Assembly: GCA_028717245.1 (NCBI GenBank)
Contig: JAQUOD010000005.1
Location: 18,637 to 82,636, forward strand
From: Candidatus Omnitrophota bacterium
GTDB taxonomy: Bacteria; Omnitrophota; Gorgyraeia; Gygaellales; Profunditerraquicolaceae
Reading direction: 5' to 3'
DNA length: 64,000 nt
The notes under the pieces were generated by a model. It saw nothing but the letters and a program-made list of their open reading frames with translations, had not been told where the DNA came from and ran no database searches. How positions within the stretch are numbered: the stretch's first letter is position 1; every line of letters starts with the position of its first letter. A program made the position numbers and the translations under genes. This document shows, piece after piece, positions 3,487-53,960 of this stretch.

Positions 3487-3553
3487 CGTTATTGCGTTAC
3501 TTGCGTTTTAGCGTTATTGCGTTCGAATGCTATAACGCAATAACCCTATAACA
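3487..3553. repeat. CGTTATTG x4-5 / ATAACNNN x4 hairpin element (trkA-trkA spacer)
   Basis: The units CGTTATTG, CGTTACTTG, CGTTTTAG, CGTTATTG and CGTTCG are followed by loop AATGCT and then ATAACGCA, ATAACCCT, ATAACACT and ATAACC. Confidence 0.8.
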
Positions 3554-4204
3554 CTATAACCCAAACCTTTCTCTTACTTTAGTTAGGCTGGCCACCTTCA
3601 CTGCCGCTGTTAATATGTCTCTTTCTCTTAATGTAGTTGAGGATTCCGGGATAATGACGCCGTGCAGCCGCCTGATGGCCACAACCAAAAATTCTCCGGG
3701 GATATTGATATCCTGTATGGTCTTGCCTATCAGGTTATCTTTGGCTTCTATCTCGATAACCCCCAGTTCTTTAGTCTCAATGAGGTAACTGGAAAAGCGG
3801 CTCTCGATGATTTTGTCCCTGAGCATCGCGGCAAACAAGATTGTTCCGCTGATAATCTCAAGGCCCAATGCGGCATAGATATGCGCGCGCTGGGGGTCAT
3901 ATACGCGGGCGATAACCTTGGGGACCTTGAAGATTTTTTTGGCTGCCTGCGCGGAGATTAAATTGGTATTGTCGCCGTTAGTTACCGCACAGAAGGCATC
4001 CGCCTTTTCAATGCCCGCTTGTTTTAGCAGGCTTAAAGAAAAACCATTGCCTACCAGAGTTACTCCGTTGAAAGTATCGCCAAGACGGTCAAAAGACGCC
4101 TGGCTCTTATCAATCACGACTACGTCGTGCCCTTCTGCTGATAAGAGTTTGGCTAATTCCGAACCTACTCTGCCGCAACCTACTATTATCACATACATAA
4201 TCAA
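3554..4204 (-). CDS. trkA: potassium transporter peripheral NAD-binding subunit TrkA (second paralog)
   Basis: It has the motif IIVGCGRVG, a TrkA_N plus TrkA_C architecture, and is 216 aa. Confidence 0.85.
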   Translation of the reverse strand: MIMYVIIVGCGRVGSELAKLLSAEGHDVVVIDKSQASFDRLGDTFNGVTLVGNGFSLSLLKQAGIEKADAFCAVTNGDNTNLISAQAAKKIFKVPKVIARVYDPQRAHIYAALGLEIISGTILFAAMLRDKIIESRFSSYLIETKELGVIEIEAKDNLIGKTIQDINIPGEFLVVAIRRLHGVIIPESSTTLRERDILTAAVKVASLTKVRERFGL

Positions 4205-4211
4205 CCTCGCC

Positions 4212-4296
4212 GTTCATTGAGTTCGTTGAGTCTATAGAGTTTATTGAGTTAACCTTACGAACTCAATAACTCAAAAAACTCAACAGGCTCAAATAA
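4212..4296. repeat. NNNTTGAGT x4 / ACTCAANNN x4 hairpin element (trkA-rplT spacer)
   Basis: TCATTGAGT, TCGTTGAGT, CTATAGAGT and TTATTGAGT are followed by a loop and then GAACTCAAT, AACTCAAAA, AACTCAACA and GGCTCAAAT. Confidence 0.85.
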
Positions 4297-4304
4297 CTAT
4301 TATA

Positions 4305-5511: not shown

Positions 5512-5521
5512 CTCCTTTTGG

Positions 5522-5598
5522 AGTTTGTTGAGTTCTTTGAGTTTGTTGAGTTAGTTGAGTTAACTCTATGAACTCTACAAACTCTATAAACTCAATGA
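5522..5598. repeat. NNNTTGAGT x4 / AACTCTNNN x4 hairpin element (infC-thrS spacer; inverted arm reaches thrS stop)
   Basis: TTGTTGAGT, TCTTTGAGT, TTGTTGAGT and TAGTTGAGT are followed by AACTCTATG, AACTCTACA, AACTCTATA and AACTCAATG. Confidence 0.85.
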
Positions 5599-7316
5599 AC
5601 TTTATTTTCTATTTCCTGCCTTATCTGTTTTACAAATTCTTCTATAGGCTTTGCCCCTAAGTCACCCTTGCCTCTTTGGCGCACGGCAACGGTCCCGTTT
5701 ATCTCCTCGCGCTCGCCCACAATCAGGATATAAGGAACCTTTGCTAATTCTGCCTGGCGTATCTTTTTGTTCAGAGTCTCGTTACGCTCATCCACCTCAA
5801 ATCTTATATGAGATTTTTCTAATTCGGGTTTAATCTTGCCCCTGATATACCCCTCTAATGAATCTTTTACCGGGATAACCATGACTTGCGTGGGGGCTAG
5901 CCACAGAGGAAACGCACCCTTATAGTGTTCTACCAAAGCGCCGATAAAACGCTCAAGGCTGCCCAAGAGCACGCGGTGCAACATTATAGGCTGTTTTTCT
6001 TTTCCTTGAGAGTCCACATAGGTAAGATTAAATCTTTTGGGGAGCGCGAAATCGCATTGAATAGTAGCGCATTGCCATTGGCGCTTCAGGGCGTCCTTTA
6101 ATTTTATATCAATCTTCGGCCCATAAAATGCGCCCTCTCCCGCATTTACCGTATAGGTTAAGCCTTTTTCTTTTAATGCCGCCTCCAACGCCTCGGTGGC
6201 CAGCTGCCAGTCTTCTTCTGAGCCGATATATTTTTCCGGACGCGTGCTTAACTCAATCCCCACGTCACTAAAACCGAAGACCTTCATCGTATCAAAGACA
6301 AATTCTATAATCATCTGTATTTCCTGCACCAGTTGTTCGGGTAAACAAAATATGTGCGCATCGTCCTGGGTAAAGCCACGCACCCGAAGCAGGCCGTGGA
6401 GGACCCCTGTCTTTTCATGGCGATAAACCGTGCCCAGTTCAAATAACCGTATAGGCAGGTCTTTATAACTGCGTATCCTGGATTTATAAATCAGGATATG
6501 GCCAGGGCAGTTCATCGGCTTTAAAACAAACTCCCGGTTTTCGATTTTTAAGATGTACATGTTCTCTTTGTAATATTCATAGTGGCCGGAGGTCTTCCAG
6601 AGCTCTGCCTGCATAATATGCGGGGTAATCACTATCTGATAGCCGCGGCGCAGATGCTCCTGCTTTTCGTAATCCTCGATTATCGTCCGCAGTAGCGCGC
6701 CCTTGGGATGATAAAAGACCAGCCCTGCCCCTGCCTCTTCATGATAGATATCAAATAATTCCATTGCCGGCCCCAGCTTCCTGTGGTCGCGCAACTTTGC
6801 CTCTTCTAAATTTTTTAAATATTCTTCTAATTTTTGCTTGGTTTCAAAACAAGTCCCGTAAATCCTCTGCAGCATCGGATTTGTCTCAATCCCGTGCCAA
6901 TAAGATCCGGCAACAGAGAGCAATTTAAAGGCCTGGATTTTGCCGGTGGATGCCAGATGCGGCCCGCGGCATAAGTCTATAAAATCTTTGCCTGTCTTGT
7001 AGATGGAGGCTGTCTCCCCGGGGAGCGCCTGGATAAGTTCTATTTTATAATCCTCTTTTAATTTTTTGAATAAGGCGAGCGCCTCTTTTTTGGAGAGCTC
7101 TTCTCTGATAAAAGGCTCATCCTTAGCGATTATTGCGCGCATCTTTTTTTCTATCTTTTCTAAATCCTCGTCGGTAAATGGCTCTTTCTTATCAAAGTCA
7201 TAGTAAAAGCCGTCTTCGATAGAAGGGCCGATGCCCAGCTTCGCCTGCGGCCAGAGCTCTTTTACCGCCTGAGCCATAATGTGGGAACACGAATGTCTTA
7301 AGGTATCTAAATTCAT
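5592..7316 (-). CDS. thrS: threonine--tRNA ligase
   Basis: This 574-aa protein has a class II aaRS core with ThrRS editing/second-additional-domain HxxxH (HSCSHIMAQA) and a C-terminal anticodon-binding domain. It lies in the conserved thrS-infC-rpmI-rplT neighbourhood. Confidence 0.93.
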   Translation of the reverse strand: MNLDTLRHSCSHIMAQAVKELWPQAKLGIGPSIEDGFYYDFDKKEPFTDEDLEKIEKKMRAIIAKDEPFIREELSKKEALALFKKLKEDYKIELIQALPGETASIYKTGKDFIDLCRGPHLASTGKIQAFKLLSVAGSYWHGIETNPMLQRIYGTCFETKQKLEEYLKNLEEAKLRDHRKLGPAMELFDIYHEEAGAGLVFYHPKGALLRTIIEDYEKQEHLRRGYQIVITPHIMQAELWKTSGHYEYYKENMYILKIENREFVLKPMNCPGHILIYKSRIRSYKDLPIRLFELGTVYRHEKTGVLHGLLRVRGFTQDDAHIFCLPEQLVQEIQMIIEFVFDTMKVFGFSDVGIELSTRPEKYIGSEEDWQLATEALEAALKEKGLTYTVNAGEGAFYGPKIDIKLKDALKRQWQCATIQCDFALPKRFNLTYVDSQGKEKQPIMLHRVLLGSLERFIGALVEHYKGAFPLWLAPTQVMVIPVKDSLEGYIRGKIKPELEKSHIRFEVDERNETLNKKIRQAELAKVPYILIVGEREEINGTVAVRQRGKGDLGAKPIEEFVKQIRQEIENKVH

Positions 7317-7317
7317 C

Positions 7318-7394
7318 GTCGTTAATCGTTATTCGTTAATCGTTATTAGATGGCTAACTTATCCATTAACGATTAACTATTAACCAATAACTAA
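7318..7394. repeat. CGTTAAT/CGTTATT x4 + ATTAACG-type x4 hairpin element abutting thrS start codon
   Basis: CGTTAAT, CGTTATT, CGTTAAT and CGTTATT are followed by loop AGATGGCTAACTTATCC and then ATTAACG, ATTAACT, ATTAACC and AATAACT. The element begins 1 nt from the thrS ATG on the minus strand. Confidence 0.85.
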
Positions 7395-13026: not shown

Positions 13027-14540
13027 CTTTTCCTGCTCATCAGCACCTGCTGTAACAACATCAGCGTACTATTAATAAACCAATATAAGACTAACCCTGA
13101 AGGCATCCGATAAAAAATAAAGCCGAACATCAGGGGAAAAATAATCATCATTAATTTCTGCTGGTCGGCAGAACCACCACTGACAGCAGACATGGACATT
13201 TTTTGCTGGAAAAACATCCCGATAGCCATTAATATCGGTAAGATATTAATTTCATTGCCTAATATGGGGATAGATGTCGGCAAAACAAATAAGCGGTCCG
13301 GCGAGGATAAGTCTTTGATCCATAAAAAGTTAGCGCCTTTTAAGGCTACAGAGCGGATAAGCACTTGGTAAAGAGCAAAGAATATGGGTATTTGCAGGAC
13401 CATAGGCAGGCAACCGCTGAGGGGGTTTACTTTATACTCGCGATATAAAGCCATAATCTCAGTATTGAGTTTTTGCGGATTGTTTTTGTGGAGTTTCTTT
13501 AATTCTTCTATGGCAGGCTGTAAGGCCTGCATCTGCTTCATAGAGCGCATTTGTTTTATGGAGAGGGGATAGAGGAGCAAATAGATCAAAAAGCTTAATA
13601 TAATGATAGTAACGCCCCAATTATGCACTAAAGAATAGAGCAGGTCTAATAATTTCAAGAGGAGCCGGGCAATAAAATCAAAGGTGCCATAATACATCAC
13701 TGCTGCCCACTCTGATTTCGCCGCAGTGATTTGTCGCAACTCTTGCGGCCCCAAATAGATACGAAATGTACGCCGCGCTTGTTGACCGGGATTTAAAGCA
13801 AGTTCCCCACTAGCTAAACCTACCAGTGATTCCTGCGCATTCAGTTTTTTCACAAAGCCGGTGTAATTATCAGGATCCGGTTCGACAATCATACAAAAAT
13901 AATTATCCCGCAAACCCATAAATTTCACAGCACTAAAATTAATTTCTTTGCGCAGATTAGAATGCACTATCTTATCACCGGCGGCTATGGTGAGATCCTG
14001 CAACCGGGACTGCGCAGGCCCGGCTGCGAAATTTAAGACACCCAGGGTTAAAGGCAGGCCAACAAAGAGGGGCTGACCGGATAAATTCTGCGCTGTAATT
14101 TCCAGGCGGATTTCGTAATCTCCGACGGCAACGAAGCGTTTGGTAATCTGTTTGGCGTTATCGCGATAGATAAAATTCACGCCTTGCGGGGTAATGCTTT
14201 CCTTACGGAAGACAAGGTTGGCATCGCCTGATAAGAGCCCGTATTTTATGGGAAAGGCATAATCCTGATAAGATTTAAAGACTACCTCCTGAATCGCTGC
14301 CTGAGATTCATTAAAAATAAGGTCGTATTTTGCTTGAGAAAATTTCAATAGGGTAGGAGTAATGGGGTCGGGTTTGGGTAACGCCAACGCTTCTACAACT
14401 ACTGGCTTAACCGCACCCGGCGCTGATATATTTTGTGTAACTCCTTTATTATCAATATTATAAGTCTTAGAAACCAAGGCGGACCAGCTTAATAAAACCA
14501 GCAACGAAAGCGCTATAGCTAAAATTAAACGTCTATCCAT
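13023..14540 (-). CDS. yidC: membrane protein insertase YidC
   Basis: This 505-aa protein has an N-terminal TM segment, a periplasmic domain and the C-terminal 5-TM YidC core. It is in the rpmH-yidD-yidC cluster. Confidence 0.9.
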   Translation of the reverse strand: MDRRLILAIALSLLVLLSWSALVSKTYNIDNKGVTQNISAPGAVKPVVVEALALPKPDPITPTLLKFSQAKYDLIFNESQAAIQEVVFKSYQDYAFPIKYGLLSGDANLVFRKESITPQGVNFIYRDNAKQITKRFVAVGDYEIRLEITAQNLSGQPLFVGLPLTLGVLNFAAGPAQSRLQDLTIAAGDKIVHSNLRKEINFSAVKFMGLRDNYFCMIVEPDPDNYTGFVKKLNAQESLVGLASGELALNPGQQARRTFRIYLGPQELRQITAAKSEWAAVMYYGTFDFIARLLLKLLDLLYSLVHNWGVTIIILSFLIYLLLYPLSIKQMRSMKQMQALQPAIEELKKLHKNNPQKLNTEIMALYREYKVNPLSGCLPMVLQIPIFFALYQVLIRSVALKGANFLWIKDLSSPDRLFVLPTSIPILGNEINILPILMAIGMFFQQKMSMSAVSGGSADQQKLMMIIFPLMFGFIFYRMPSGLVLYWFINSTLMLLQQVLMSRKR

Positions 14541-14603
14541 AATTTTACCCCGCTAGATAAAGGTTATCCCGCCGCAACCACATTCTTTGGCGGGAGTGAT
14601 TAT

Positions 14604-14819
14604 TTATAGTAAGGGATCCCAACCACTTTTACGCGAGAAAGGATGGCACGCTAATAGCCTCTGCGCACCCTTTAAAGTCCCGCGCAAGAAACCGTATTTG
14701 CTGATCGCCTGTTTAGTGTATTCTGAACAGCTGGGCAGAAAGCGGCAAGAGGAAGGCAGCATCCTGCGTATGCAGCTTTGATATATATTAAGGAGACCGA
14801 GCGCTGCTCTTTTTAACAT
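14604..14819 (-). CDS. yidD: membrane protein insertion efficiency factor YidD
   Basis: It has the PSCSEY motif and is 71 aa. Confidence 0.85.
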   Translation of the reverse strand: MLKRAALGLLNIYQSCIRRMLPSSCRFLPSCSEYTKQAISKYGFLRGTLKGAQRLLACHPFSRKSGWDPLL

Positions 14820-14956
14820 TAAAGAGAAATACTGTGTCTGCCTTTTTGGCGCCGACGGGCTAAAACTGCTCTGCCTGCCTTTGTGGCCATGCGGCGCCGG
14901 AACCCGTGCCGTCGTTGACCGACGATATTTGTGGGCGTCTTTAAATTTTTTTTCAT
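14819..14956 (-). CDS. rpmH: 50S ribosomal protein L34
   Basis: The minus-strand ATG at 14954-14956 gives [45 protein letters not shown], 45 aa. It was missed by the ORF track because it is under 60 aa. Its stop shares 1 nt with the yidD start. Confidence 0.9.
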
Positions 14957-15117
14957 GCGGGGGCTCGTCCTTGTATTGTATGGCGTTTAGAATAGTGCAG
15001 TAATTATAACATAAGCCAACGCCAAGTCAATACCGCTTTTTAAAATATTATCCCGCGCCCCCTAACCACTTGAATCAAGATAACCACGGGTGAAAAGGAT
15101 ATTTAAAGTATTGATCC

Positions 15118-15205
15118 ATGGGCGAACGGTTTTAGCGGGTCCTGCCGCGGGGGCGCCTCTCGTCAAATTTTCCTCGAGGCATCCCCCGCGTCACCCGCTA
15201 AAAGC
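15118..15205 (+). repeat. copy 1 of a repeated palindromic element (44-nt identical core CCTCTCGTCAAATTTTCCTCGAGGCATCCCCCGCGTCACCCGC with flanking compensatory stem)
   Basis: An identical 44-mer is also present at about 33685-33728. Outer stem: copy 1 is TTTTAGCGGGT...ACCCGCTAAAA and copy 2 is TTTTGCGGGT...ACCCGCAAAA. Confidence 0.7.
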
Positions 15206-15329
15206 ATTATCTATAAACAGTATGCTAATTTTAAACTTAACTTGATTTTTGTTGACTGACACAAAAATTATTGTATAATAATGCACACACCTTATTTTCT
15301 CTTGCGCTATTATTGGGCTTTGTTATAAT

Positions 15330-15385
15330 ATTTCCACAGGTTTATCCAAGTTGTGCATAAGCTGTGAATAATGTAGATAAGTGGG
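15330..15385. promoter_or_regulatory. cluster of DnaA-box-like 9-mers immediately upstream of dnaA
   Basis: TTATCCAAG, TGTGCATAA, TGTGAATAA and TGTAGATAA (7-8 of 9 matches to TTATCCACA/TGTGGATAA) occur within 60 bp, and there is a TATAAT-like box at about 15323. Confidence 0.55.
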
Positions 15386-15396
15386 GCAATTAAGCC

Positions 15397-16731
15397 ATGC
15401 TGGACGTCCAAGGGCTTTGGGAGAAGGCGAAGAGCCATTTACAAGATAAGCTGGGTAAGACTACTTTTGACACGTGGATACTGCCTCTGAAGCCAAAATA
15501 CACAAGCGAAACTGAGCTGACCCTGGCAGCCCCGGATACTTTTTTCCGGGACTGGGTAAATACGCACTATGGCCAACCCATCCAGGAAGCAATTAATGGT
15601 TTCGCCAAGCAGGTAATCCGTCTGCATTTAGAAGCCGCCTCTGCTGCCAAGGATAGTTTATCCCGACTACCCCCACTGGCCACAACTAAAATCCAGGATA
15701 TAAAGGATATCTCCGGCCTGAACTCCCGTTATACATTTGAAAATTTTGTCATCGGCCCGTCTAACCGCCATGCCCATGCTTATTCTCTGGCAGTGGCAGA
15801 ATCCCCGGCCAAAACTTATAACCCTTTGTTTATATACGGCGGGGTGGGCCTGGGCAAGACGCACCTGATCCAGGCGGTCTGCCATCATGCTAAAAACAAG
15901 GCCGGGGGGAATCTTAAGATCTGCTATATGACTTCAGAGCGGTTCACCAATGAGCTCATCGACGCCATACAGCACCATTCTACACCTGCCTTCAGGCAGA
16001 AATACAGAAACGTGGATATATTGGTCATAGATGATATACATTTTATTGCCGGCAAGGAATCTACCCAGGAAGAATTCTTCCATACCTTTAATACATTATA
16101 CGACGCCCACAAGCAGATTATTATTTCCTCCGATAGGCCGCCCAAAGAGATATCTAACTTGCAAGACAGGCTCGTCTCCAGGTTTGGCTGGGGGTTGACT
16201 ACGGATATACAGCCCCCGGATTTAGAAACGCGGGTGGCGATATTAAAGAAAAAAATCGAGAGAGAGCCGGTGGCAGTGCCGGATGAAGTCATATTTTTTA
16301 TCGCCCAGCTGATTAAAACTAATATCCGGGAATTGGAGGGCGCTCTCATACGCACCATAGCTTATTCTCTGTTGGAAGAGAAACCAATTACCTTAGAATT
16401 AACCAAAGAGGTTTTAAAAGACCTCTTAAAAGAACCACAAAAATTAATTACCGTGGATTTTATACAGCGTTGCGTGGCGGAAGAATACGGGGTGTCGCTT
16501 GCGGACTTAAAGACCAGGCGTAGGAGCAAAAATATTGTCCTGCCCCGGCAAGTAGCTATGTATCTGAGCAGGGAACTTACAGACCTGTCTTTGCCGGAAA
16601 TAGGTAATTTTTTCGGGGGCAAAGATCATACTACCGTATTACATTCCTATAATAAAATCAAAAATGATTTAAATAGTAACGAGATATTAAAAAACAAGGT
16701 AGAAAGGGTTATACAAGTTATTCAACAGTAA
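15397..16731 (+). CDS. dnaA: chromosomal replication initiator DnaA
   Basis: It has the AAA+ Walker A GGVGLGKTHL, sensor motifs, and a C-terminal DnaA-box binding HTH (VAMYLSRELT). It is 444 aa. Confidence 0.97.
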   Translation: MLDVQGLWEKAKSHLQDKLGKTTFDTWILPLKPKYTSETELTLAAPDTFFRDWVNTHYGQPIQEAINGFAKQVIRLHLEAASAAKDSLSRLPPLATTKIQDIKDISGLNSRYTFENFVIGPSNRHAHAYSLAVAESPAKTYNPLFIYGGVGLGKTHLIQAVCHHAKNKAGGNLKICYMTSERFTNELIDAIQHHSTPAFRQKYRNVDILVIDDIHFIAGKESTQEEFFHTFNTLYDAHKQIIISSDRPPKEISNLQDRLVSRFGWGLTTDIQPPDLETRVAILKKKIEREPVAVPDEVIFFIAQLIKTNIRELEGALIRTIAYSLLEEKPITLELTKEVLKDLLKEPQKLITVDFIQRCVAEEYGVSLADLKTRRRSKNIVLPRQVAMYLSRELTDLSLPEIGNFFGGKDHTTVLHSYNKIKNDLNSNEILKNKVERVIQVIQQ

Positions 16732-17965: not shown

Positions 17966-22013
<4,048 letters not shown>

Positions 22014-22014
22014 A

Positions 22015-22160
22015 AATTTGTGTAATGTGTAAAGTGTAATGTGTAAAGCGGGTGTAATGCAAAAGATAGGTGTAATGGGGAAAACACTTGCATTACACGG
22101 TAAAATATTAAACCTACATTACACGTTACACATTTAACGTTACACAGAAACGCAGCCCCT
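22015..22160. repeat. intergenic direct/inverted array of GTGTAAT(G) / CATTACAC units (gyrB-gyrA spacer)
   Basis: There are about 6 GTGTAA(A/T)G units followed by 4 CATTACAC/GTTACAC units, a long imperfect hairpin. Confidence 0.8.
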
Positions 22161-29324: not shown

Positions 29325-29891
<567 letters not shown>

Positions 29892-29987
29892 TAGTTCATT
29901 GAGTCTATTGAGTTCATAGAGTCCATTGAGTTGTATATATCATAACTCAAAAAACTCAAAAAACTCAAAAAACTCAAAAAACTCAAT
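29892..29987. repeat. 9-mer NNNTTGAGT x4 / ACTCAAAAA x4 hairpin element (pyrR-pyrB spacer, ends at pyrB ATG)
   Basis: The units CATTGAGT, CTATTGAGT, TCATAGAGT and CCATTGAGT are followed by loop GTATATATCATA and then ACTCAAAAA x4 plus ACTCAAT. Confidence 0.85.
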
Positions 29988-30935
29988 ATGGTCTGGACGA
30001 GAAAAGATTTACTGGGTTTAGAAGATTTAAGCCGGGAAGAGCTGGAGTTTATCTTAGCTACTGCGGATTCCTTTAAAGAGGTTTCTACCCGCGAGATTAA
30101 AAAAGTCCCGGCCTTACGCGGTAAGACCGTGGTGAATTTGTTCTATGAACCCTCTACAAGGACAAGGGTATCTTTTGAGCTAGCAGCAAAACGCTTATCC
30201 GCAGACGTGATTAATATTGCCTCAGAGACCTCCAGCGTCAAAAAAGGGGAAACCTTAATTGATACCGGCAGGAACATAGAGGCCCTGAAAGTAGATATTA
30301 TCGTAGTGCGGCATAATTATTCCGGGGCAGCGGCAATACTGGCGCGCCATGTCAAGGCCAGCGTGATTAATGCCGGAGACGGCTGGCACGAACATCCTAC
30401 GCAGGCGCTCTTGGATATTTTTACTTTAAAGGAGAAACTAGGCAGGATTGAAGGGTTAAGGGTGAGTATTGTCGGAGATATCGCGCACTCGCGCGTGGCC
30501 CGTTCCAATATCTGGGGGTTGACTAAATTAGGCGCTCAAGTGACGGTCTGCGCGCCCAAAATGTTGGTGCCGCCGGCCATTGAAGAAATGGGCGTTAGAG
30601 TGACTAATGATATAGATGAGGCGCTAAAAGATGCTGATGCAGTGGATGTCTTAAGGATGCAGTTTGAGCGCGATGAGGGTAATGCCTTCCCAGAGCAATT
30701 AGAATATTTTAAAAACTTCGGGATTACCGAAGAAAGGTTAGAGAAGGCTAAGAAGAATATTATTGTCATGCATCCGGGGCCCTTAAACCGCGGGATTGAA
30801 ATTTCCAGCGGCGTAGCCGACGGCGCAAACTCTGTGATACTGGAACAGGTGACCAACGGCATTGCCGTGAGGATGGCCGCGCTCTTTTTAGTAGCGCAGG
30901 CGAATGAGAATATCAGCCATGAAGATACTCATTAA
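29988..30935 (+). CDS. pyrB: aspartate carbamoyltransferase catalytic subunit
   Basis: It has the STRTR and HPTQALLD motifs and is 315 aa. Confidence 0.95.
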   Translation: MVWTRKDLLGLEDLSREELEFILATADSFKEVSTREIKKVPALRGKTVVNLFYEPSTRTRVSFELAAKRLSADVINIASETSSVKKGETLIDTGRNIEALKVDIIVVRHNYSGAAAILARHVKASVINAGDGWHEHPTQALLDIFTLKEKLGRIEGLRVSIVGDIAHSRVARSNIWGLTKLGAQVTVCAPKMLVPPAIEEMGVRVTNDIDEALKDADAVDVLRMQFERDEGNAFPEQLEYFKNFGITEERLEKAKKNIIVMHPGPLNRGIEISSGVADGANSVILEQVTNGIAVRMAALFLVAQANENISHEDTH

Positions 30936-33544: not shown

Positions 33545-33564
33545 AGGTAAGCACTGTGCAGGTT

Positions 33565-33586
33565 CCCTGCCTGCCGGCAGGCAGGG
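33565..33586. repeat. perfect palindrome CCCTGCCTGCCGGCAGGCAGGG (related copy inside pyrK at 41462-41483)
   Basis: It has 11-bp arms, there is no U-tract after it, and a near-copy CCCTGCCTGTCCGGCAGGCAGG is embedded in the pyrK coding sequence. Confidence 0.8.
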
Positions 33587-33639
33587 ACTCCCGCCAGGCG
33601 CACTTTGATAACTTAATGATTTTGCTGCGGGATTTGCTC

Positions 33640-39067: not shown

Positions 39068-39431
39068 CCGTATCGAGTTAGTGGATATTACGGAGAGAAT
39101 CCAGGCAATAGTATCTAAAAGCAAAGTTAAAGATGGCGTGTGTTTTCTCTTCTGTCCGCATACTACTGCCGGGCTGACTATCAATGAAAACGCAGATCCG
39201 TCGGTCAGGCAGGATATTATCCGTGCCCTGAATAAGCTCATCCCGGAAAATGCCGGATACACGCATAGTGAAGGCAATTCCGATAGCCATATCAAGGCAG
39301 CGCTCTTTGGTTCTTCCCTAACTATATTTATTGAGAGTGGCCGCTTGGCATTCGGCACTTGGCAGGGGATATATTTTTGCGAAGGCGACGGACCGCGCTC
39401 CAGAGAGGTCTGGGTTAAAATTTTAAGTTAG
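39039..39431 (+). CDS. YjbQ/UPF0047 family protein (secondary thiamine-phosphate synthase-like)
   Basis: It has the YjbQ pattern [21 protein letters not shown]...HIKAAL and is 130 aa. It overlaps the carB 3' end by 29 nt. Confidence 0.75.
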
Positions 39432-39550
39432 CACCTGGTGTGAATCCAATCGGGCACCAGGTGCGAATTCAAGATTGTACCAGGTACAAGATTAGATTTG
39501 GAAACGGTACAAGATTAGTTTCGCACCTGGTACGAGATTAGCTCGGCACC
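39432..39550. repeat. array of 5-6 palindromic GCACCNGGTGC-type units (upstream of mutM)
   Basis: The units CACCTGGTG, GCACCAGGTGC, GTACCAGGTAC, GCACCTGGTAC and GCACCTAGTGC are separated by spacers of about 10-18 nt that contain AAGATTAG. Confidence 0.8.
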
Positions 39551-39552
39551 TA

Positions 39553-40368
39553 GTGCAAGGAGAAGAAATGCCGGAGTTACCGGAAGTTGAGACCATAAAA
39601 AGGGAATTAGAAAAAGCAGTCCTGGGCAAGAAGATTACCGAGGTCTATGTGCATCGTGCTGTGGTTATTCGTCAACCCTCTGTAAAGAGATTTAAGCTGG
39701 GCTTAACCGGCGCCAGCATTAAGCATATCTTGCGTAAGGCCAAGGTTTTGATTTTGGAGCTTTCTAACGGTAAGGCCCTGGTTATTCATTTGAAGATGAC
39801 CGGCCAACTGGTTTATCCGGGTAATGATAAAGCCAGCCGGGTGAGTTTTAAATTATCCGGCGGTAAAACCCTGGATTTTAACGACCAGAGATTATTTGCG
39901 GAACTGCGGCTGATGGATGATTGGCGCAGCTTAAAATTTATCCAGGGATTAGGCCCGGAGCCGTTTGCTATAACCGCGGAAGAATTCAAAGGCATGCTCA
40001 GCAGTAAAAAGACTAAAATCAAACCACTGCTTTTGGACCAAACATTTATTTCCGGCATAGGCAATCTCTATGCTGCGGAAGCGCTCTTTCGGGCCGGGAT
40101 TCATCCTGAACGGCCCGCGTCTTCTTTAACAGATAGAGAAAAAGCTTTGTTATTTCGGGAAATAAAAGATACTTTATCCGAAGCTATAAGATACAAAGGT
40201 TCCTCGGTAGACCAATACGTGCAGTTATCGGGTGAACCCGGAGACTACGCGCAATATCATAAGGTATATGGCCGCGAAGGTAAGCCTTGTTTGGTCTGCA
40301 AAACACCGATTAAAAGGATGGCCTTAGGCGGCAGGGGGACTTATTTCTGCCCGAGGTGCCAGCGCTAA
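39553..40368 (+). CDS. mutM: formamidopyrimidine-DNA glycosylase
   Basis: It has the N-terminal MPELPEVE and a C-terminal zinc finger CxxC...CxxC, and is 271 aa. Confidence 0.9.
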   Translation: MQGEEMPELPEVETIKRELEKAVLGKKITEVYVHRAVVIRQPSVKRFKLGLTGASIKHILRKAKVLILELSNGKALVIHLKMTGQLVYPGNDKASRVSFKLSGGKTLDFNDQRLFAELRLMDDWRSLKFIQGLGPEPFAITAEEFKGMLSSKKTKIKPLLLDQTFISGIGNLYAAEALFRAGIHPERPASSLTDREKALLFREIKDTLSEAIRYKGSSVDQYVQLSGEPGDYAQYHKVYGREGKPCLVCKTPIKRMALGGRGTYFCPRCQR

Positions 40369-40369
40369 A

Positions 40370-41053
40370 ATGAAAAAACGCCTGAAGATAAACGGACTGA
40401 TTATGTTTCTGGCAGTTGTTTTGATCCTGGCTTTTCCTAAGATATTTTTCCGGCGGCCGCAGGCACTTTTCTGGGACGGATTCGCCAATATCTGCGGTAT
40501 TGCGCTTATTCTTTTAGGCCAGATTTTTCGGGCCTCTGGCCGGGGTTACAAATCCGCAAATTCCCAAAATAGCCGCTCTTTGATTGAGCGGGGGCCTTAT
40601 ACCCTGGTGCGTAACCCCATGTATCTGGGTATACTTTTAACCGGGCTGGGGGTTGTACTTGCGCTCTTTAATTTCTGGGCGCTGGTTATTTTCCTGTGCG
40701 TTTTTATTGTACGCTACATCTTCCTTATCTTTCAGGAAGAAAAGAAACTTGTAGCAGTGTTTGGCCAGGCGTACCAGGATTACCAGCAAAGAGTCCCCCG
40801 CCTTATCCCTGCTTGGGGCGCGCTATTAAAGAAAGATATCGCAGAATACCTTCCATTAAAAACGCTCTGGCTAAAAAAAGAAATAGGCTCAATATTAGCC
40901 GTGCTTTTTGTTGTTTTTTTGATAGAGGGTTGGAACGATGCGCTCAGCATGGGTTTAAGTATGTATCTACGCAAAACAGTATTAACCTTAAGTGTCATTA
41001 TCGTATTCTCAGGCCTGATTATTTATTTGCTCAAAAAGACAGGTGAACGGTAA
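40370..41053 (+). CDS. membrane methyltransferase, isoprenylcysteine carboxyl methyltransferase (ICMT/PEMT) family
   Basis: It is a multi-TM protein with RGPYTLVRNPMYLG, the ICMT/PEMT signature, and is 227 aa. Confidence 0.65.
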   Translation: MKKRLKINGLIMFLAVVLILAFPKIFFRRPQALFWDGFANICGIALILLGQIFRASGRGYKSANSQNSRSLIERGPYTLVRNPMYLGILLTGLGVVLALFNFWALVIFLCVFIVRYIFLIFQEEKKLVAVFGQAYQDYQQRVPRLIPAWGALLKKDIAEYLPLKTLWLKKEIGSILAVLFVVFLIEGWNDALSMGLSMYLRKTVLTLSVIIVFSGLIIYLLKKTGER

Positions 41054-41918
41054 AAAGATGCTTCAAATCAAGGCAAAAATACTTTATAATAAAAGGATTA
41101 AGGGTAATTATTTTCAACTGGTCCTGGGAGCTTCGCAGATAGCCAAAGAAGCCCAGCCAGGACAATTTGTGAATATCAGGGTAAACGGCGGCGCTTTTGA
41201 ACCGCTGCTGCGCCGGCCCTTTAGTATCCATAAGGCCTCAAGAGGTAGCATAGAGATTCTTTATGAGGTGCTGGGTGAGGCGACGCAGATTTTATCAACT
41301 CGCAAGGCAGGGGAATATTCAGATGTGATTGGGCCATTAGGGCATGGTTTTAATTACAGCTTACAGCTTACAGCTTACAGCTTACGGATATTAGTTGCCG
41401 GCGGCATGGGAGTCGCGCCGCTTTTATTCCTCGCGGAAAAAATACAGAGGTGTCAAAGTGTCCCTGCCTGTCCGGCAGGCAGGAAAGTGTCAAAGTATCA
41501 AAGTATGGTATTAATAGGAGCTAAGACAAAATATCAGCTTTTCTGCGAAAAAGAGTTTAAAGATTTAGGTTGCGCAGTAAAAATCGCCACTGACGACGGC
41601 TCAAGAGGTTTTAAGGGCAAGGTTACTGAGTTGTTAAAACATATTCTACCAACGACCAACGACCAACGACCAACGACCATATACGCTTGCGGCCCAAGGC
41701 CGATGTTAAAACAAGTTGCGTTGATTTCTCAAAAACATAAAATTCCCGGTCAGATTTCTTTAGAAGAACATCTGGCCTGCGGCATAGGTGCGTGTTTAGG
41801 TTGCGTAGTGAATACGACAGGAGGTTTTCAGAGAGTCTGTAAAGAAGGCCCGGTCTTTAGCGCTGATAGTATAATCTGGTCAAATGAAGACGAGACTTAT
41901 GGAGCGAAGCGAACGTAA
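41043..41918 (+). CDS. pyrK: dihydroorotate dehydrogenase electron-transfer subunit PyrK (with three in-frame repeat insertions)
   Basis: It has the FAD-binding RRPFSI, an NAD-binding domain, and C-terminal Cys ligands CGIGACLGCVV for the 2Fe-2S cluster. Confidence 0.8.
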   Translation: MNGKKMLQIKAKILYNKRIKGNYFQLVLGASQIAKEAQPGQFVNIRVNGGAFEPLLRRPFSIHKASRGSIEILYEVLGEATQILSTRKAGEYSDVIGPLGHGFNYSLQLTAYSLRILVAGGMGVAPLLFLAEKIQRCQSVPACPAGRKVSKYQSMVLIGAKTKYQLFCEKEFKDLGCAVKIATDDGSRGFKGKVTELLKHILPTTNDQRPTTIYACGPRPMLKQVALISQKHKIPGQISLEEHLACGIGACLGCVVNTTGGFQRVCKEGPVFSADSIIWSNEDETYGAKRT

Positions 41919-41936
41919 GTCTCTGTCTGAATTTGA

Positions 41937-41962
41937 CCCGCCAAAGTTCTGTGGCGGGTTTA
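41937..41962 (+). terminator. candidate rho-independent terminator after pyrK
   Basis: The stem CCCGCCA/TGGCGGG is followed by TTTAATT. Confidence 0.5.
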
Positions 41963-42030
41963 ATTCGCACAATAACTTACTCACACTTTGTGCTCGTAAG
42001 TTATCTGCTCATTAAAAAAGGAGGCAGACA

Positions 42031-43182
42031 ATGGCGTCCTTTAATCCCTTTGTTTCCATCATTATACCCGTAAAGAACTTTGAGCGCACCATTGAGAAGA
42101 CCTTTGAATACCTGCTCGCCGTGGATTACCCGCGGGACTCCTGGGAATGGGTGATTGCCGACGGAGGTTCTACAGATAAGACCGTAGAAATTATAGAAAG
42201 TTGGCGCAAAATCTACCCTTTCATTAAGTTAGTCCAAATCCCTAATTGTCCATCTCCGGGATTTGCCCGTAACAAAGCCTTGGAAGCAGTAAAGGGCGAT
42301 TTTCTTTTTTTTACTGATGCTGATTGCGCGCCGGATAAGAACTGGATAAACGAGATGCTCAAGCACTTTAGCCGTGACCCGCAGATTGCCGCCGTGGGAG
42401 GCGAAGTCTTCACCTTAAAAGTCGACCCCAACAATCTGGTAGAGGCCTGGTGCCAGCACTTCCGTTTCAATATGGTCTCTCCCCGCTACGGTTTTATTCA
42501 GGAGGGGTACTACCCGGAATTCCCCAGAGACCCTGAGCCCTCGGATATCGGCGGGCATAAGGCTTATTTTTTCGGTACTTGTAATGTCGCTTACCGCCGC
42601 AGTGCCATGCGCGAGATTGGGGCTAAATTCTGGGAGAGGCCCACTGGCGAAGACATGGATTTAAGTTATCAGCACCGCCAGGCAGGCTGGAAATTTTATT
42701 TTGCGCCTAAAGCCAAAGTCGACCATATGCACCGCGCAGATTTAAAGGCCCTGCTTCGGGTCTGGGTGACCTATGGCCAGGCGCATTTGCCTTTAATCCA
42801 GAAGTATGTGCGTAAAAATAACTTGGAGATTATCCTGCAATTTTTAAAAGGCAACCCTTCATTTGTGCTGCCCTTTCCTCTAAAAGGGTTTATTTATTTG
42901 GGTAATTTCCATATGTTACATATTTTTGCCCTGCTTTTTATCTTGGGCGTGGTAGGCAATTTTATCTGGCTAGGCGTATTTTGGAAAATCTTTACGCTCG
43001 CCTCTTTATTTTTGACCATATATTTTCTCTATCAGTATGTAAAGTGGAACTTTGGCATGGAGCCGAAGGATAAATTCTTTACCTGGTGCAGGATGAAATA
43101 CCTGACTAATTTGAGTTTTATCCGCGGGGGGCTTAAGGGTCTTAGTAAACATAAGGTATTATGTATTGAGCCGAGTTTTTAG
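42031..43182 (+). CDS. family 2 glycosyltransferase with C-terminal TM segments
   Basis: It has the GT-A motifs SIIIPVKN...DGGSTD...FFTDADC and is 383 aa. An AGGAGG Shine-Dalgarno sequence lies upstream. Confidence 0.8.
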   Translation: MASFNPFVSIIIPVKNFERTIEKTFEYLLAVDYPRDSWEWVIADGGSTDKTVEIIESWRKIYPFIKLVQIPNCPSPGFARNKALEAVKGDFLFFTDADCAPDKNWINEMLKHFSRDPQIAAVGGEVFTLKVDPNNLVEAWCQHFRFNMVSPRYGFIQEGYYPEFPRDPEPSDIGGHKAYFFGTCNVAYRRSAMREIGAKFWERPTGEDMDLSYQHRQAGWKFYFAPKAKVDHMHRADLKALLRVWVTYGQAHLPLIQKYVRKNNLEIILQFLKGNPSFVLPFPLKGFIYLGNFHMLHIFALLFILGVVGNFIWLGVFWKIFTLASLFLTIYFLYQYVKWNFGMEPKDKFFTWCRMKYLTNLSFIRGGLKGLSKHKVLCIEPSF

Positions 43183-43272
43183 AAGCGGCGTCAAAGTATC
43201 AAGGTGTCAATGTGTCAAAGTGTAGATTTTTTGATACTTTGATACACTGACACTTTGACACAACATTAGGAG
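43183..43272. repeat. GTCAAAGT/GTATCAAG x4 + inverted x4 hairpin element (GT2-tauE spacer)
   Basis: CGTCAAAGTATCAAGGTGTCAATGTGTCAAAGTG is followed by loop TAGATTTT and then TTGATACTTTGATACACTGACACTTTGACAC. Confidence 0.85.
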
Positions 43273-43279
43273 AAATATA

Positions 43280-43639
43280 ATGAATCAGATTTTATATATA
43301 ATTTTAGGCATAGTCGCTGGTATCTTCGGAGGGATGTTTGGCATCGGCGGAGGAACTATTCTTATCCCGGCTTTGGTTTATCTCTTCGGGTTGACACAGC
43401 ATCAGGCGCAAGGCACAACCTTGGCTATTATGATTCCTCCTATCGGGCTCTTGGCAGCACTGCGTTATTATTATAGCGGTAACGTAAAGTTGGGTATGGC
43501 CGGGTTCATCTGCCTGGGGTTTTTTATCGGCGGGTTAATCGGCGCAAACTTTGTGCAGAATTTATCCGACCCGCTCCTGAAAAGATTATTTGGCATATTC
43601 CTGCTTTTCGTTTCTATCCAGATGATTTTAAGCAAATAA
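43280..43639 (+). CDS. TauE/SafE (TSUP) family half-size membrane transporter
   Basis: It has a 4-TM TSUP repeat with G-rich motif GIGGGTILIPAL and is 119 aa. Confidence 0.65.
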   Translation: MNQILYIILGIVAGIFGGMFGIGGGTILIPALVYLFGLTQHQAQGTTLAIMIPPIGLLAALRYYYSGNVKLGMAGFICLGFFIGGLIGANFVQNLSDPLLKRLFGIFLLFVSIQMILSK

Positions 43640-43640
43640 A

Positions 43641-44576
43641 ATGCAAAACAAACTTTCCGTGAATATAGGTAACTTGAAACTCAAGAACCCGGTGATGGTT
43701 GCCTCAGGTACATTTGGTTATGCCGATGAATTCCGGGGCTTTATGGATTTAAAAAAACTGGGCGCGATTGTCACCAAGACCATTACCTTAAAGCCCCGCC
43801 AAGGCAACCTGCCCCCGCGCACCTGTGAAACTCCCGCGGGCATGCTTAACTCTATCGGCTTAGAAAATCCCGGGCTTATAGTTTTTCTGGCAGAGAAATT
43901 ACCCCAGTTGAAAAAGATAGGCGTGCCGATAATTATCAGCATTGCCTCTGAGGATAACCCGGATGAATTTATCAGCCTTGCAAAGCGTCTGGATAAAGTC
44001 AGGGGAGTCGCGGCGATAGAGCTAAATATTTCCTGCCCTAATGTTAAAAATCCCAAATCCCAAATCCCAAATCCCAAACTAATCTCTCAGAATCCAAAAG
44101 CAACTTATAATTTAGTCAGGCAGGTGCGCAAGGTTACCAGCAAGACTATTATTACCAAGCTTTCCCCTAATGTTACCGATATCGCCGAAATCGCTTTGGC
44201 AGCTGAAAGAGCCGGCAGCGACGCGGTTTCTTTAATAAATACGCTTACCGGCATGAGCATAGATATAAAAACGAAGAAACCTAAGATCGCAAGCGTTACG
44301 GGAGGTTTAAGCGGTCCGGCAATTAGGCCGGTTGCGGTGAGGATGGTCCGGGAGGTTTATCAAAAGATTAAAATCCCTATCGTCGGAATGGGTGGTATAA
44401 TGGATACCAAAAGCGCACTGGAATTCTTTATTGCCGGGGCAACGGCAATCAGCATAGGCACGGCGAATTTTATTAATCCCAAGGTAACCATGGAAATAAT
44501 CCAGGGTATAAAGGAATATTTGATTACCAATAAAATAAAAGATATTAAAATACTGAGCGGGAGCCTTAAAACATGA
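43641..44576 (+). CDS. pyrD: dihydroorotate dehydrogenase catalytic subunit (class 1B)
   Basis: It has the TIM-barrel DHOD motifs ASGTFGY...NSIGLENPG...ELNISCPN...GGI. It contains an in-frame AAATCCC x4 repeat. Confidence 0.9.
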   Translation: MQNKLSVNIGNLKLKNPVMVASGTFGYADEFRGFMDLKKLGAIVTKTITLKPRQGNLPPRTCETPAGMLNSIGLENPGLIVFLAEKLPQLKKIGVPIIISIASEDNPDEFISLAKRLDKVRGVAAIELNISCPNVKNPKSQIPNPKLISQNPKATYNLVRQVRKVTSKTIITKLSPNVTDIAEIALAAERAGSDAVSLINTLTGMSIDIKTKKPKIASVTGGLSGPAIRPVAVRMVREVYQKIKIPIVGMGGIMDTKSALEFFIAGATAISIGTANFINPKVTMEIIQGIKEYLITNKIKDIKILSGSLKT

Positions 44577-45277
44577 AACCAGCGAACAGCGAACAGCGAA
44601 CAGCGACCCAACTGATTCTCGCCCTGGACGTAGATAACCCTAGAGAGGCGCTACGTTGGGTAAAGTTGCTTTATCCGAAAGTAAAAATTTTTAAGGTGGG
44701 TTTAGAGCTTTATACAGCAGGCGGCCCCAAGATTATTCGGGCTATCCGTAAAACAGGGGCGAGCGTTTTTTTGGATTTAAAATTTAATGATATCCCTAAC
44801 ACCATGGCAAAAGCAGCTAAAGAGGCATTAAAGCATAAAGCAGCCATGTTTACAGTGCATACCTTATCCGGGCCAACCGCGCTTAAGGAGGTTAGCAATA
44901 TCTGCCGCGGAAGCCATACTAAGGTCTTAGGGGTAACCCTGCTCACCAGTATCTGCGGCCGTTTCCTGAAAGATTTAGGAATTAATAAGCCAGTGTCGAG
45001 TGAAGTCCTGTATTTAGCCAGAATGGCAAGAAGATGCGGCTTAGACGGCGTGGTCTGCTCTGTGCAGGAGGCAAGGATAATCAGGAAACGCTTAGGCAGG
45101 AATTTTATTATTCTTACTCCCGGGATAAGGCCAGATGGTTTTATAAAAGAAGACCAGAAAAGGATTGCCACGCCCAAAGACGCAAGGGAAGCCGGTGCAG
45201 ATTTTATTGTCGTCGGCAGGCCAATACTTAAAGCAAAGAATCCAAGACAGGTAGTAGAAGAGATATTGACGGGATAG
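44573..45277 (+). CDS. pyrF: orotidine 5'-phosphate decarboxylase
   Basis: It has LILALDV...DLKFNDIPNT. The N-terminus carries a CAGCGAA x4 repeat. Confidence 0.9.
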   Translation: MKPANSEQRTATQLILALDVDNPREALRWVKLLYPKVKIFKVGLELYTAGGPKIIRAIRKTGASVFLDLKFNDIPNTMAKAAKEALKHKAAMFTVHTLSGPTALKEVSNICRGSHTKVLGVTLLTSICGRFLKDLGINKPVSSEVLYLARMARRCGLDGVVCSVQEARIIRKRLGRNFIILTPGIRPDGFIKEDQKRIATPKDAREAGADFIVVGRPILKAKNPRQVVEEILTG

Positions 45278-53817: not shown

Positions 53818-53960
53818 TTGCATTTGCTATCGCGTATGGTATAATTGTTTTAAAAGCAATAGTAGATAAGTAAGTGGTCTGGGAATATACAAAAGTATTC
53901 CCGGAGGATTTTCGATGGTCGGGCCGCCATCTTGCATGATAATGCGGGATGGCGTTTTTT
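53818..53960 (+). promoter_or_regulatory. promoter (TTGCAT-16-TGgTATAAT) plus leader with mutually exclusive antiterminator/terminator hairpins
   Basis: The leader contains GGGAATA...TATTCCC, then GATGG-TCGGGCC-GCCATC overlapping CGCCATC-...-GATGGCG-TTTTTT. This lies 34 nt upstream of ATG 53994. Confidence 0.55.

Follow-up and report, generated by a model that had tools for sequence, protein, structure and literature searches.

We analysed a window of 64,000 nt from the genome of a Candidatus Omnitrophota bacterium (assembly GCA_028717245.1, contig JAQUOD010000005.1), in which the genes for three enzymes of pyrimidine biosynthesis contain short tandem repeats (arrays) within their reading frames. 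All three genes are on the plus strand. pyrK (41043..41918) encodes the electron-transfer subunit of dihydroorotate dehydrogenase B (PDB 1EP3_B, E 1.6e-31), pyrD (43641..44576) the catalytic subunit of the same enzyme (PDB 1EP1_A, E 8e-81), and pyrF (44573..45277), whose start codon overlaps the pyrD stop codon, encodes orotidine-5'-phosphate decarboxylase (PDB 3LDV, E 6e-52, with the alignment beginning at residue 12). These matches agree with the gene identities given in an initial annotation, which had described the repeats as possible phase-variable (contingency) loci or, as a fallback, as the outcome of a genome-wide heptamer process that is tolerated only in frame.

We observed that pyrK carries TTACAGC x4.57 at 41354-41385 (site K1, encoding YSLQLTAYSL) and ACCAACG x4.57 at 41648-41679 (site K3, encoding PTTNDQRPTT); the unit of the latter had been given as CCAACGA. 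The pyrD array is AAATCCC x4.43 at 44048-44078 (NPKSQIPNPK), and that of pyrF is CAGCGAA x3.86 at 44580-44606, which encodes residues 3-12 (PANSEQRTAT). These four arrays are perfect, lie on the plus strand, and measure 27-32 nt each. A fifth repeat, ACTAACG/ACCAACG x3.6 (1157-1181, 94% identity), lies in the gene at 689-1192. All five repeats and the peptides ascribed to them were confirmed, with coordinates shifted by 1-3 nt. Such runs are not expected by chance: period-7 runs of at least 27 nt numbered 4 in the window and 0 in 200 block shuffles of it, and runs of at least 17 nt numbered 6 as against a mean of 0.04 in the shuffles.

Beyond these repeats, we found an 8-mer array in pyrK, a palindrome that splits it, and 14 intergenic arrays. 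The 8-mer array, GTGTCAAA x4.6 (37 nt), forms site K2 (41450-41507, plus strand), and is interrupted between 41450-41462 and 41484-41507 by a palindromic micro-element of 21 nt, CCTGCCTGTCCGGCAGGCAGG (41463-41483), which is translated in frame as PACPAGR. Removal of 41463-41483 restores the 8-nt register. The window by itself has at least eight unit families among its arrays.

Compared with the solved structures, PyrK has inserted residues at K2 and K3, as has PyrD at its array site, and PyrF is extended at its N-terminus; this is as had been proposed when the repeats were said to encode extra loop residues. K1 encodes the linker between the flavin adenine dinucleotide (FAD) and nicotinamide adenine dinucleotide (NAD) domains, and exceeds the L. 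lactis linker by about one residue. At K2, the array and palindrome together add 45 nt (15 residues) to a baseline loop of 7 residues, so that the 22 residues of the window's loop are composed of 7 + 8 (three 8-mers) + 7 (the palindrome). K3 lies in the loop preceding the IYACGP strand, and the PyrD array in the loop directly after the catalytic SCPN motif, which we take, from structural work on class 1 dihydroorotate dehydrogenases, to be the flexible loop bearing the catalytic cysteine. The PyrF array forms the N-terminal tail. The window PyrK is 100% identical to an NCBI protein from a Candidatus Omnitrophota metagenome-assembled genome. Its AlphaFold2 model was of moderate quality (predicted local distance difference test, pLDDT, 68; predicted template modelling score 0.55), and was therefore employed solely for placing the arrays in loops. 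In this model secondary-structure elements flank the arrays, and pLDDT drops below 50 at residues 107-110 (K1) and 141-149 (K2).

We further examined relatives, using 80 pyrK loci from species-representative genomes (about 55 Omnitrophota and about 25 outgroups), in which pyrK is mostly followed by pyrD and pyrF. Arrays of period 7-9 were called with Tandem Repeats Finder in these loci and in the window, the sampling being centred on pyrK. This yielded 107 arrays with about 85 distinct canonical units, and 90 of the 107 had period 7. Perfect period-7 runs were bimodal in 842 kb of Omnitrophota DNA, with a peak at 30-34 nt (17 runs), few runs at 21-28 nt and none above 34 nt; most of the shorter runs came from arrays that are imperfect or split by a palindrome. 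The outgroup DNA (325 kb) had no perfect period-7 run longer than 16 nt. Run lengths at periods 5 and 6 were as in the outgroup, and periods 10-11 gave almost no runs in either set.

The arrays of the orthologs, which come from about 55 Omnitrophota species, map to exactly five places: PyrK residues 104-116 (K1), 134-156 (K2) and 201-213 (K3), PyrD residues 136-147, and PyrF residues 3-12 (the last occupied at the same place in loci L017 and L034). The units found at one place are diverse. At K1 we observed TTACAGC, CTATCCG, ATTGCAA, GATACTC, ACCGAAC, CGAAAGA, ACCCAAA, CACCCTA, CGAAGGG and the 8-mer AAACTGGC. Since many independent assemblies, produced with different assemblers, have arrays at the same sites, we could rule out an assembly artefact. 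Heptamer arrays were also seen in carB of relatives (L001 970-1000, L006 8060-8084, L034 3065-3126), at the C-terminal tail and, in L034, near residue 540. Two of these carB arrays have the same unit as pyrD of the window, AAATCCC, whereas carB of the window itself is free of arrays.

At the four internal sites (at K1 without a clean step), loop length changes in steps of seven residues, that is three units or 21 nt. The K3 region measures 42, 45 or 48 nt in species that lack an array, and 63, 66 or 69 nt in those that have one; ACTATCGACTAT of L010 amounts to 1.7 copies of ACTATCG in 42 nt, where the 63 nt of L031, L001 and L004 contain 4.7 copies. For PyrD, the region measures 54 nt in many array-less Omnitrophota as against 75 nt in the window, and taking 21 nt out of the window's gene leaves K-N-P-K-L, the baseline form. 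We also measured the PyrD loop, from SCPN to LISQD, in an independent sample of 113 homologs. It had 5-7 residues in 23, 12-14 in 61, 19-20 in 7 and 23-26 in 9, the remaining 13 being off-class (10-11, 15-18 or 33 residues). Six of the seven loops of 19-20 residues hold the palindrome peptide (e.g. LPVRQAG), and several of those with 23-26 residues look as if an inverted array had been joined to the end of a direct one. Among 33 closer homologs (at least 47% identity to the window PyrK), the K2 loop had 7 residues in 12, 14 residues in 8, 21-22 residues in 3 and other lengths in 10. The single 8-mer array at K1 lies in a region of 69 nt, which would correspond to 45 + 24 if the 45-nt class is its baseline.

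These observations have led us to favour, with a probability of about 60%, the view that the arrays are tolerated by-products of replication slippage that have been filtered by the reading frame, and not on/off switches. The repeats of pyrK, pyrD and pyrF would belong to a class of short tandem arrays found across the lineage (with units of 7 nt, less often 8-9 nt, in about 4-5 copies) that probably originate locally by slippage. The seed would be a stretch of 10-12 nt which already has a direct repeat of 3-5 nt at 7-nt spacing. If change ran from seed to array at each site, the frame would be kept only if three units were gained on balance (21 nt, or 24 nt in the case of 8-mers), taking 1.4-1.7 copies to 4.4-4.7; about four units would then be seen in genes because this is the smallest frame-preserving expansion. 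The fallback offered by the initial annotation is thus well supported by the 7-residue loop steps, and can be sharpened to a seed plus three units. Three further filters are proposed. The unit would have to contain no stop codon or else carry a substitution where the stop falls in frame, its periodic 7-residue peptide would have to suit its place (A/C-rich units giving K/N/T/P/Q/H loops, and G/T-rich units a signal peptide), and the site would have to be a length-tolerant loop. The arrays would then be translated as loop insertions that are probably near-neutral.

Translation of a heptamer array passes through all three frames, and its unit must therefore be stop-free or patched at the in-frame stop. 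We observed that 11 of the 62 in-gene arrays have a unit able to create a stop codon. All 11 are imperfect, as compared to 26 of the 51 stop-free arrays (Fisher p 0.002). In the two cases inspected codon by codon, L002 and L036, a single substitution (GCCATTA to GCCATAA) coincides with the position of the in-frame TAG. In-gene arrays were 64% A+C on the sense strand (49.5% is expected for stop-free units). A/C-rich codons encode K, N, T, P, Q and H, which are hydrophilic residues, and we attribute the composition bias to the encoded residues. The sole array with a G/T-rich sense strand encodes part of a signal peptide. This is the minus-strand array at 1157-1181, where CGTTGGT/CGTTAGT gives AVGRWSLVV in the signal peptide MKKAVGRWSLVVSILFLLVTC of a putative lipoprotein (gene 689-1192); a Pfam comparison gave no family for this protein.

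Under the phase-variation part of the initial interpretation, slippage by one unit would reversibly switch pyrimidine synthesis, in a lineage that may obtain nucleotides from a host. As in the contingency simple sequence repeat (SSR) loci of Haemophilus and Neisseria, the in-gene unit is not a multiple of three, and any change by one unit shifts the frame. The arrays are also concentrated in pyrK, pyrD and pyrF, with further ones in carB of relatives; all of these may be conditionally dispensable genes, in which an out-of-frame path of array birth would be easiest. However, none of 206 copies of pyrK, pyrD and pyrF (each aligned by tblastn in one piece over at least 85% of the query) was frameshifted, although these are consensus assemblies, in which rare variants could escape. 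Nine further copies aligned over a shorter length: eight end no more than 20 nt from the end of the locus, and the pyrF of L010 was unaligned at its N-terminus. No copy of the three genes had a second high-scoring segment pair in another frame in the tblastn comparison.

Copy number was equally stable. The protein collection contained no relatives at least 90% identical to the window's genes, and clusters from other species were therefore used; among 46 alleles in ten clusters of at least 90% identity, no change in unit number was seen (again in consensus assemblies). The window's PyrK, PyrD and PyrF are each found under two NCBI accessions, on two contigs, with identical sequence. The array-bearing genes encode pyrimidine-biosynthesis enzymes, and not surface, host-interaction or restriction-modification functions. 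The arrays have only about 4.5 units, and similar arrays occur in non-coding hairpins, where switching would be meaningless. Unlike the Haemophilus and Neisseria loci, these are short tracts in housekeeping genes, at sites conserved across the Omnitrophota clade sampled, with no length polymorphism or OFF alleles seen, and unit length is the only hallmark of a contingency locus that they share. We consider the switching explanation very improbable. Of the two parts of the earlier interpretation, the phase-variable one was not supported and the frame-filtered one was.

If frame-filtered slippage is the generator, the arrays would turn over by contractions of 21 nt, point decay, recombination patches and fresh expansion, and orthologous sites would in consequence carry unrelated units. 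On a rough neighbour-joining tree (PyrK and PyrD, variable loops masked), neighbouring tips often differ in both the presence of an array and its unit. Between alleles at least 90% identical, a K3 array patch has been exchanged (TIDYRLST versus PLAICHRPLA). We considered slow drift of one ancestral unit as an alternative. The K3 series ACTATCG, ACCATCG, ACCAACG, with its single-step differences, fits this in part, but most units are unrelated and neighbouring tips differ, and we rejected it as a general account.

The palindrome provided a second view of these sites. CCTGCCTGTCCGGCAGGCAGG also splits arrays in L006 (twice), L008 and L031. L081 and L001 are about 98% identical, and their sole difference at this place is an exact CCTGCCTGTCCGGCAGGCAGG inside a CTATCCG array; the indel has no target duplication and leaves the array register unchanged. 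Similarly, P0139 has two palindrome copies in an array where P0043 has one. We found the palindrome on more than 120 metagenome contigs, and 22 of 124 copies lay in 7-periodic sequence as compared to 5 of 1240 control positions. Most of the metagenome copies are not in arrays but in different surroundings, and probably belong to different lineages, so that the association with arrays is an enrichment and is not exclusive. Two metagenome contigs (L082 and L083) end inside or immediately after the palindrome at K1. In L057 a different palindrome, TACCCTGGCGGGCACAGG-like, is present in AGTCACC arrays (885-925, 6605-6650 and K3 of pyrK), and the array-targeting micro-elements thus differ between species. 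We propose that arrays are preferred landing sites of palindromic micro-elements of 18-21 nt, which are themselves maintained in frame.

Nostoc punctiforme reportedly has small dispersed repeats (SDR) of about 21-27 nt that show signs of mobility, some of them nested in tandem heptamer repeats. By this description the palindrome resembles an SDR, being very small, dispersed and polymorphic for presence. It differs in phylum and sequence, and in being a perfect palindrome of 20 or 21 nt that is translated where it lies in genes. The in-gene form is 21 nt, and a perfect form of 20 nt lies at 33566-33585. The latter is inside the T-loop of a tRNA-like fragment (T-arm plus acceptor; 33545-33620) just 3' of tRNA-Arg(ccg), with the arrangement GGTTC, CCTGCCTGCCGGCAGGCAGG, GACTCC...CAGGCGCA. 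The same arrangement is found in Velamenicoccus archaeovorus (L067 2626-2645). Neither ARAGORN nor Rfam gave a call for the fragment at 33545-33620.

The palindrome and the recurrence of certain units raise the question of whether mobile elements left the arrays behind or carried them as cargo. The arrays would then be either target-site duplications that accumulated over repeated rounds of insertion and excision, or cassettes of arrays and hairpins that are dispersed and enter genes. The same unit family can be seen at several unlinked loci of the window (three for GTCAAAGT, two for ACCAACG and three for the GAGTT 9-mers), arrays and palindromic elements are associated, and complete inverted array hairpins sit within K2 of some orthologs (e.g. 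L004). The K3 patch exchanged between alleles of at least 90% identity could be read in the same way. However, the palindrome inserts without target duplication and with the register intact, and because it is a clean 21-nt indel the target-site-duplication model could be ruled out. The K3 and PyrD arrays appear to be built from local ancestral sequence (the L010 seed, and baselines such as AAAGCTCAAAGCT), and the units are nearly all different, which is unlike copies of a mobile element. A mobile origin therefore seems to us highly doubtful, and local slippage filtered by frame is the reading retained below.

The 14 intergenic arrays (7-, 8- or 9-mers in about 4-5 copies each) form 7 inverted pairs, each in the gap directly downstream of a gene, and all 7 fold as long segmented hairpins with RNA fold z-scores of -4.8 to -7.7. 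An 8-mer pair, CGTTATTG x4.5 and CTATAACC x4.1, lies 3' of a minus-strand gene at 3487-3562 (-30.4 kcal/mol, z -6.9). Two 9-mer pairs of the GAGTTNNTT family are at 4212-4298 (z -5.5) and 5521-5605 (z -6.5). The 7-mer pair TCGTTAA/TTAACCA at 7319-7393 (z -4.8), about 180 nt beyond the stop codon, has a left arm that is perfect at period 14 with an (AB)(AB) pattern, and the left arm of the TGTGTAA/TTACACG pair 3' of gyrB (22019-22145, z -7.1) is likewise perfect at period 14. A further 9-mer pair (29893-29986, z -7.7) lies between a gene for a PyrR-like phosphoribosyltransferase and pyrB, its right arm, AACTCAAAA x4.78, being perfect. The last pair, GTCAAAGT/TTTGATAC (43190-43262, z -6.3), is made of 8-mers of the same unit family as K2. 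An Rfam scan of the window returned only tRNAs and an nhaA-I element, and no family covered the arrays or hairpins.

In the region 29352-29988, the 9-mer hairpin directly follows the PyrR-like gene and ends 1 base before the pyrB start codon, a place where a PyrR attenuator would be expected. The Rfam scan gave no PyrR element above threshold at 29352-29988.

Such hairpins could point to arrays as functional nucleic-acid elements, that is protein-binding or structure-forming DNA or RNA (G-quadruplex-like, for instance) in which four units are selected. The strong hairpins are found immediately 3' of genes, non-coding arrays too show a preference for about four units, and Xanthomonas likewise shows four units and convergent pairs (PMC4692102). 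The antisense strand of the pyrD array reads GGGATTT x4; among the in-gene heptamers of the pyr genes this alone provides four G-tracts, and TTACAGC, ACCAACG and CAGCGAA do not. However, there are about 85 unrelated units, mostly without G-tracts, and since these behave alike a sequence-specific explanation such as the G-quadruplex cannot be general. Neighbouring tips of the rough tree differ in array presence, the composition bias is accounted for by the encoded residues, and palindrome insertions disrupt arrays without loss of the gene. We regard selection on the nucleic acid itself as improbable. The hairpins resemble repetitive extragenic palindromic (REP) elements and REPINs, which are mobilised by REP-associated tyrosine transposases (RAYT), in being short, palindromic, dispersed mostly 3' of genes and inserted without target duplication; they are unlike them in that the arms are internally periodic arrays.

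Several results do not sit easily with slippage that is merely filtered by frame. Although no frame constrains them, 26 of the 32 non-coding arrays have 3.6-4.8 copies, which indicates that the four-unit preference is partly intrinsic to the generating process; simple slippage by one unit does not predict this, and standalone arrays of 2-3 copies are rare. A gain of 21 nt in one step from a seed of 1.7 copies is impossible by ordinary slippage, so that array births need out-of-frame intermediates or several slips per event. K1 shows no clean 21-nt step, with classes of 45-72 nt of which 63 is the commonest. Unit families that recur at unlinked loci of the window hint at copying between loci. 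Lastly, pyrK, pyrD and pyrF account for 14.6% of the sampled bases and for 54 of 98 arrays (a number that common ancestry and the pyrK-centred sampling have inflated), and neutral filtering by itself does not account for this concentration; births may pass by way of frameshifted intermediates, which would survive only where a gene is conditionally dispensable. In the same pyrK-centred sample, 66 of 98 arrays are inside open reading frames, and non-coding DNA seemed richer in arrays per base if about 10% is assumed to be truly non-coding (the stop-to-stop map gives 98% coding).

We also observed that several non-coding arrays fit a double period (14, 16 or 18) better than the single one, and that two, perfect at period 14, are plainly of the form (AB)(AB), which points to arrays growing by doubling (1, 2, then 4 copies). 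A broader reading would join these points: an intrinsic slippage mode with a 7-nt register and two successive doublings, shared with cyanobacteria and xanthomonads, would operate in genes by way of a frameshifted two-copy intermediate, and arrays would for that reason accumulate in conditionally dispensable genes. We think this possible, although unlikely. If it were true, the four-unit preference would be mechanistic and unrelated to G-quadruplexes, and de novo pyrimidine synthesis in host-dependent Omnitrophota would be switched off and on, either now or repeatedly in the past.

Heptamer repeats are known from other bacteria. Those of Xanthomonas (GGGAATC) and Nostoc (GGGGAYT) prefer four units, form convergent pairs and lie near stop codons, the four-unit preference having been attributed to G-quadruplex formation (Rehm et al. 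2015, PMC4692102). The Omnitrophota arrays share with them the number of about four units and the inverted pairs near gene 3' ends. They differ in having about 85 units, mostly without G-tracts, instead of one consensus unit per genome, and in that many are in coding sequence at orthologous loops, where the four units are explained by frame, while those of Xanthomonas and Nostoc are mostly intergenic. The TAACTGA repeats of Beggiatoaceae, cyanobacteria and Bacteroidetes (MacGregor 2015, PMC4679880) are likewise heptamer direct repeats close to gene ends, with 2-6 copies per set. Unlike the Omnitrophota arrays, they consist of a single unit, are mostly upstream of start codons, and have a suggested role in translational regulation (PMC4679880).

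As relayed in PMC4679880, Mrazek (2007) found heptamers to be the most abundant class of long SSRs in bacteria, tentatively linked this to polymerase slippage, and named a 7-nt polymerase contact as a possible cause. The heptanucleotide short tandemly repeated repetitive (STRR) sequences of heterocystous cyanobacteria, and long SSRs in general, resemble the Omnitrophota arrays in the dominance of heptamers, for which polymerase slippage with a 7-nt register has been proposed (Mazel 1990 and Mrazek 2007, via PMC4692102 and PMC4679880). Repeats within coding regions are reported to favour unit lengths divisible by three; the Omnitrophota 7-mers would persist there by means of the three-unit quantum. 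New relative to these heptamer systems are the many unrelated units, the location at orthologous enzyme loops, and the three-unit quantum.

The Omnitrophota arrays offer a natural experiment on why heptamers are favoured and why four units are seen, with frame arithmetic (seed plus three units) giving the copy number in genes. They indicate that conserved enzymes can accommodate fast-changing repeat DNA in loops, even in the mobile loop at the PyrD active site, and that 21-nt palindromic micro-elements can be translated as 7-residue inserts in essential enzymes. There are practical consequences as well, since arrays and palindromes break metagenome assemblies (as in the two contigs ending at the pyrK site), and the ortholog length classes that arrays produce could be mistaken for errors.

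Some further features of the window were observed. CGGCCGC x4 (85% identity) lies at 202-229, inside a minus-strand open stretch (6-761). The gyrB gene (18243-22013) encodes 1256 residues and contains an intein (Pfam Intein_splicing, residues 464-886), in which a degenerate 7-mer array, AAGACAA x4.1, is present at 20537-20566. A 23-nt tandem repeat of about 2.6 copies, together with several small CACCTGGTG-like palindromes, occupies 39430-39560, upstream of an fpg/mutM-like gene (39553..40368). Gene orientation flips from minus to plus at about 14540-15400, and the cumulative GC skew has its minimum at about 12-16 kb; a replication origin may be located near the flip. The nhaA-I RNA motif (RF03057) at 53875-53932 scored 47 bits, which exceeds the gathering score.

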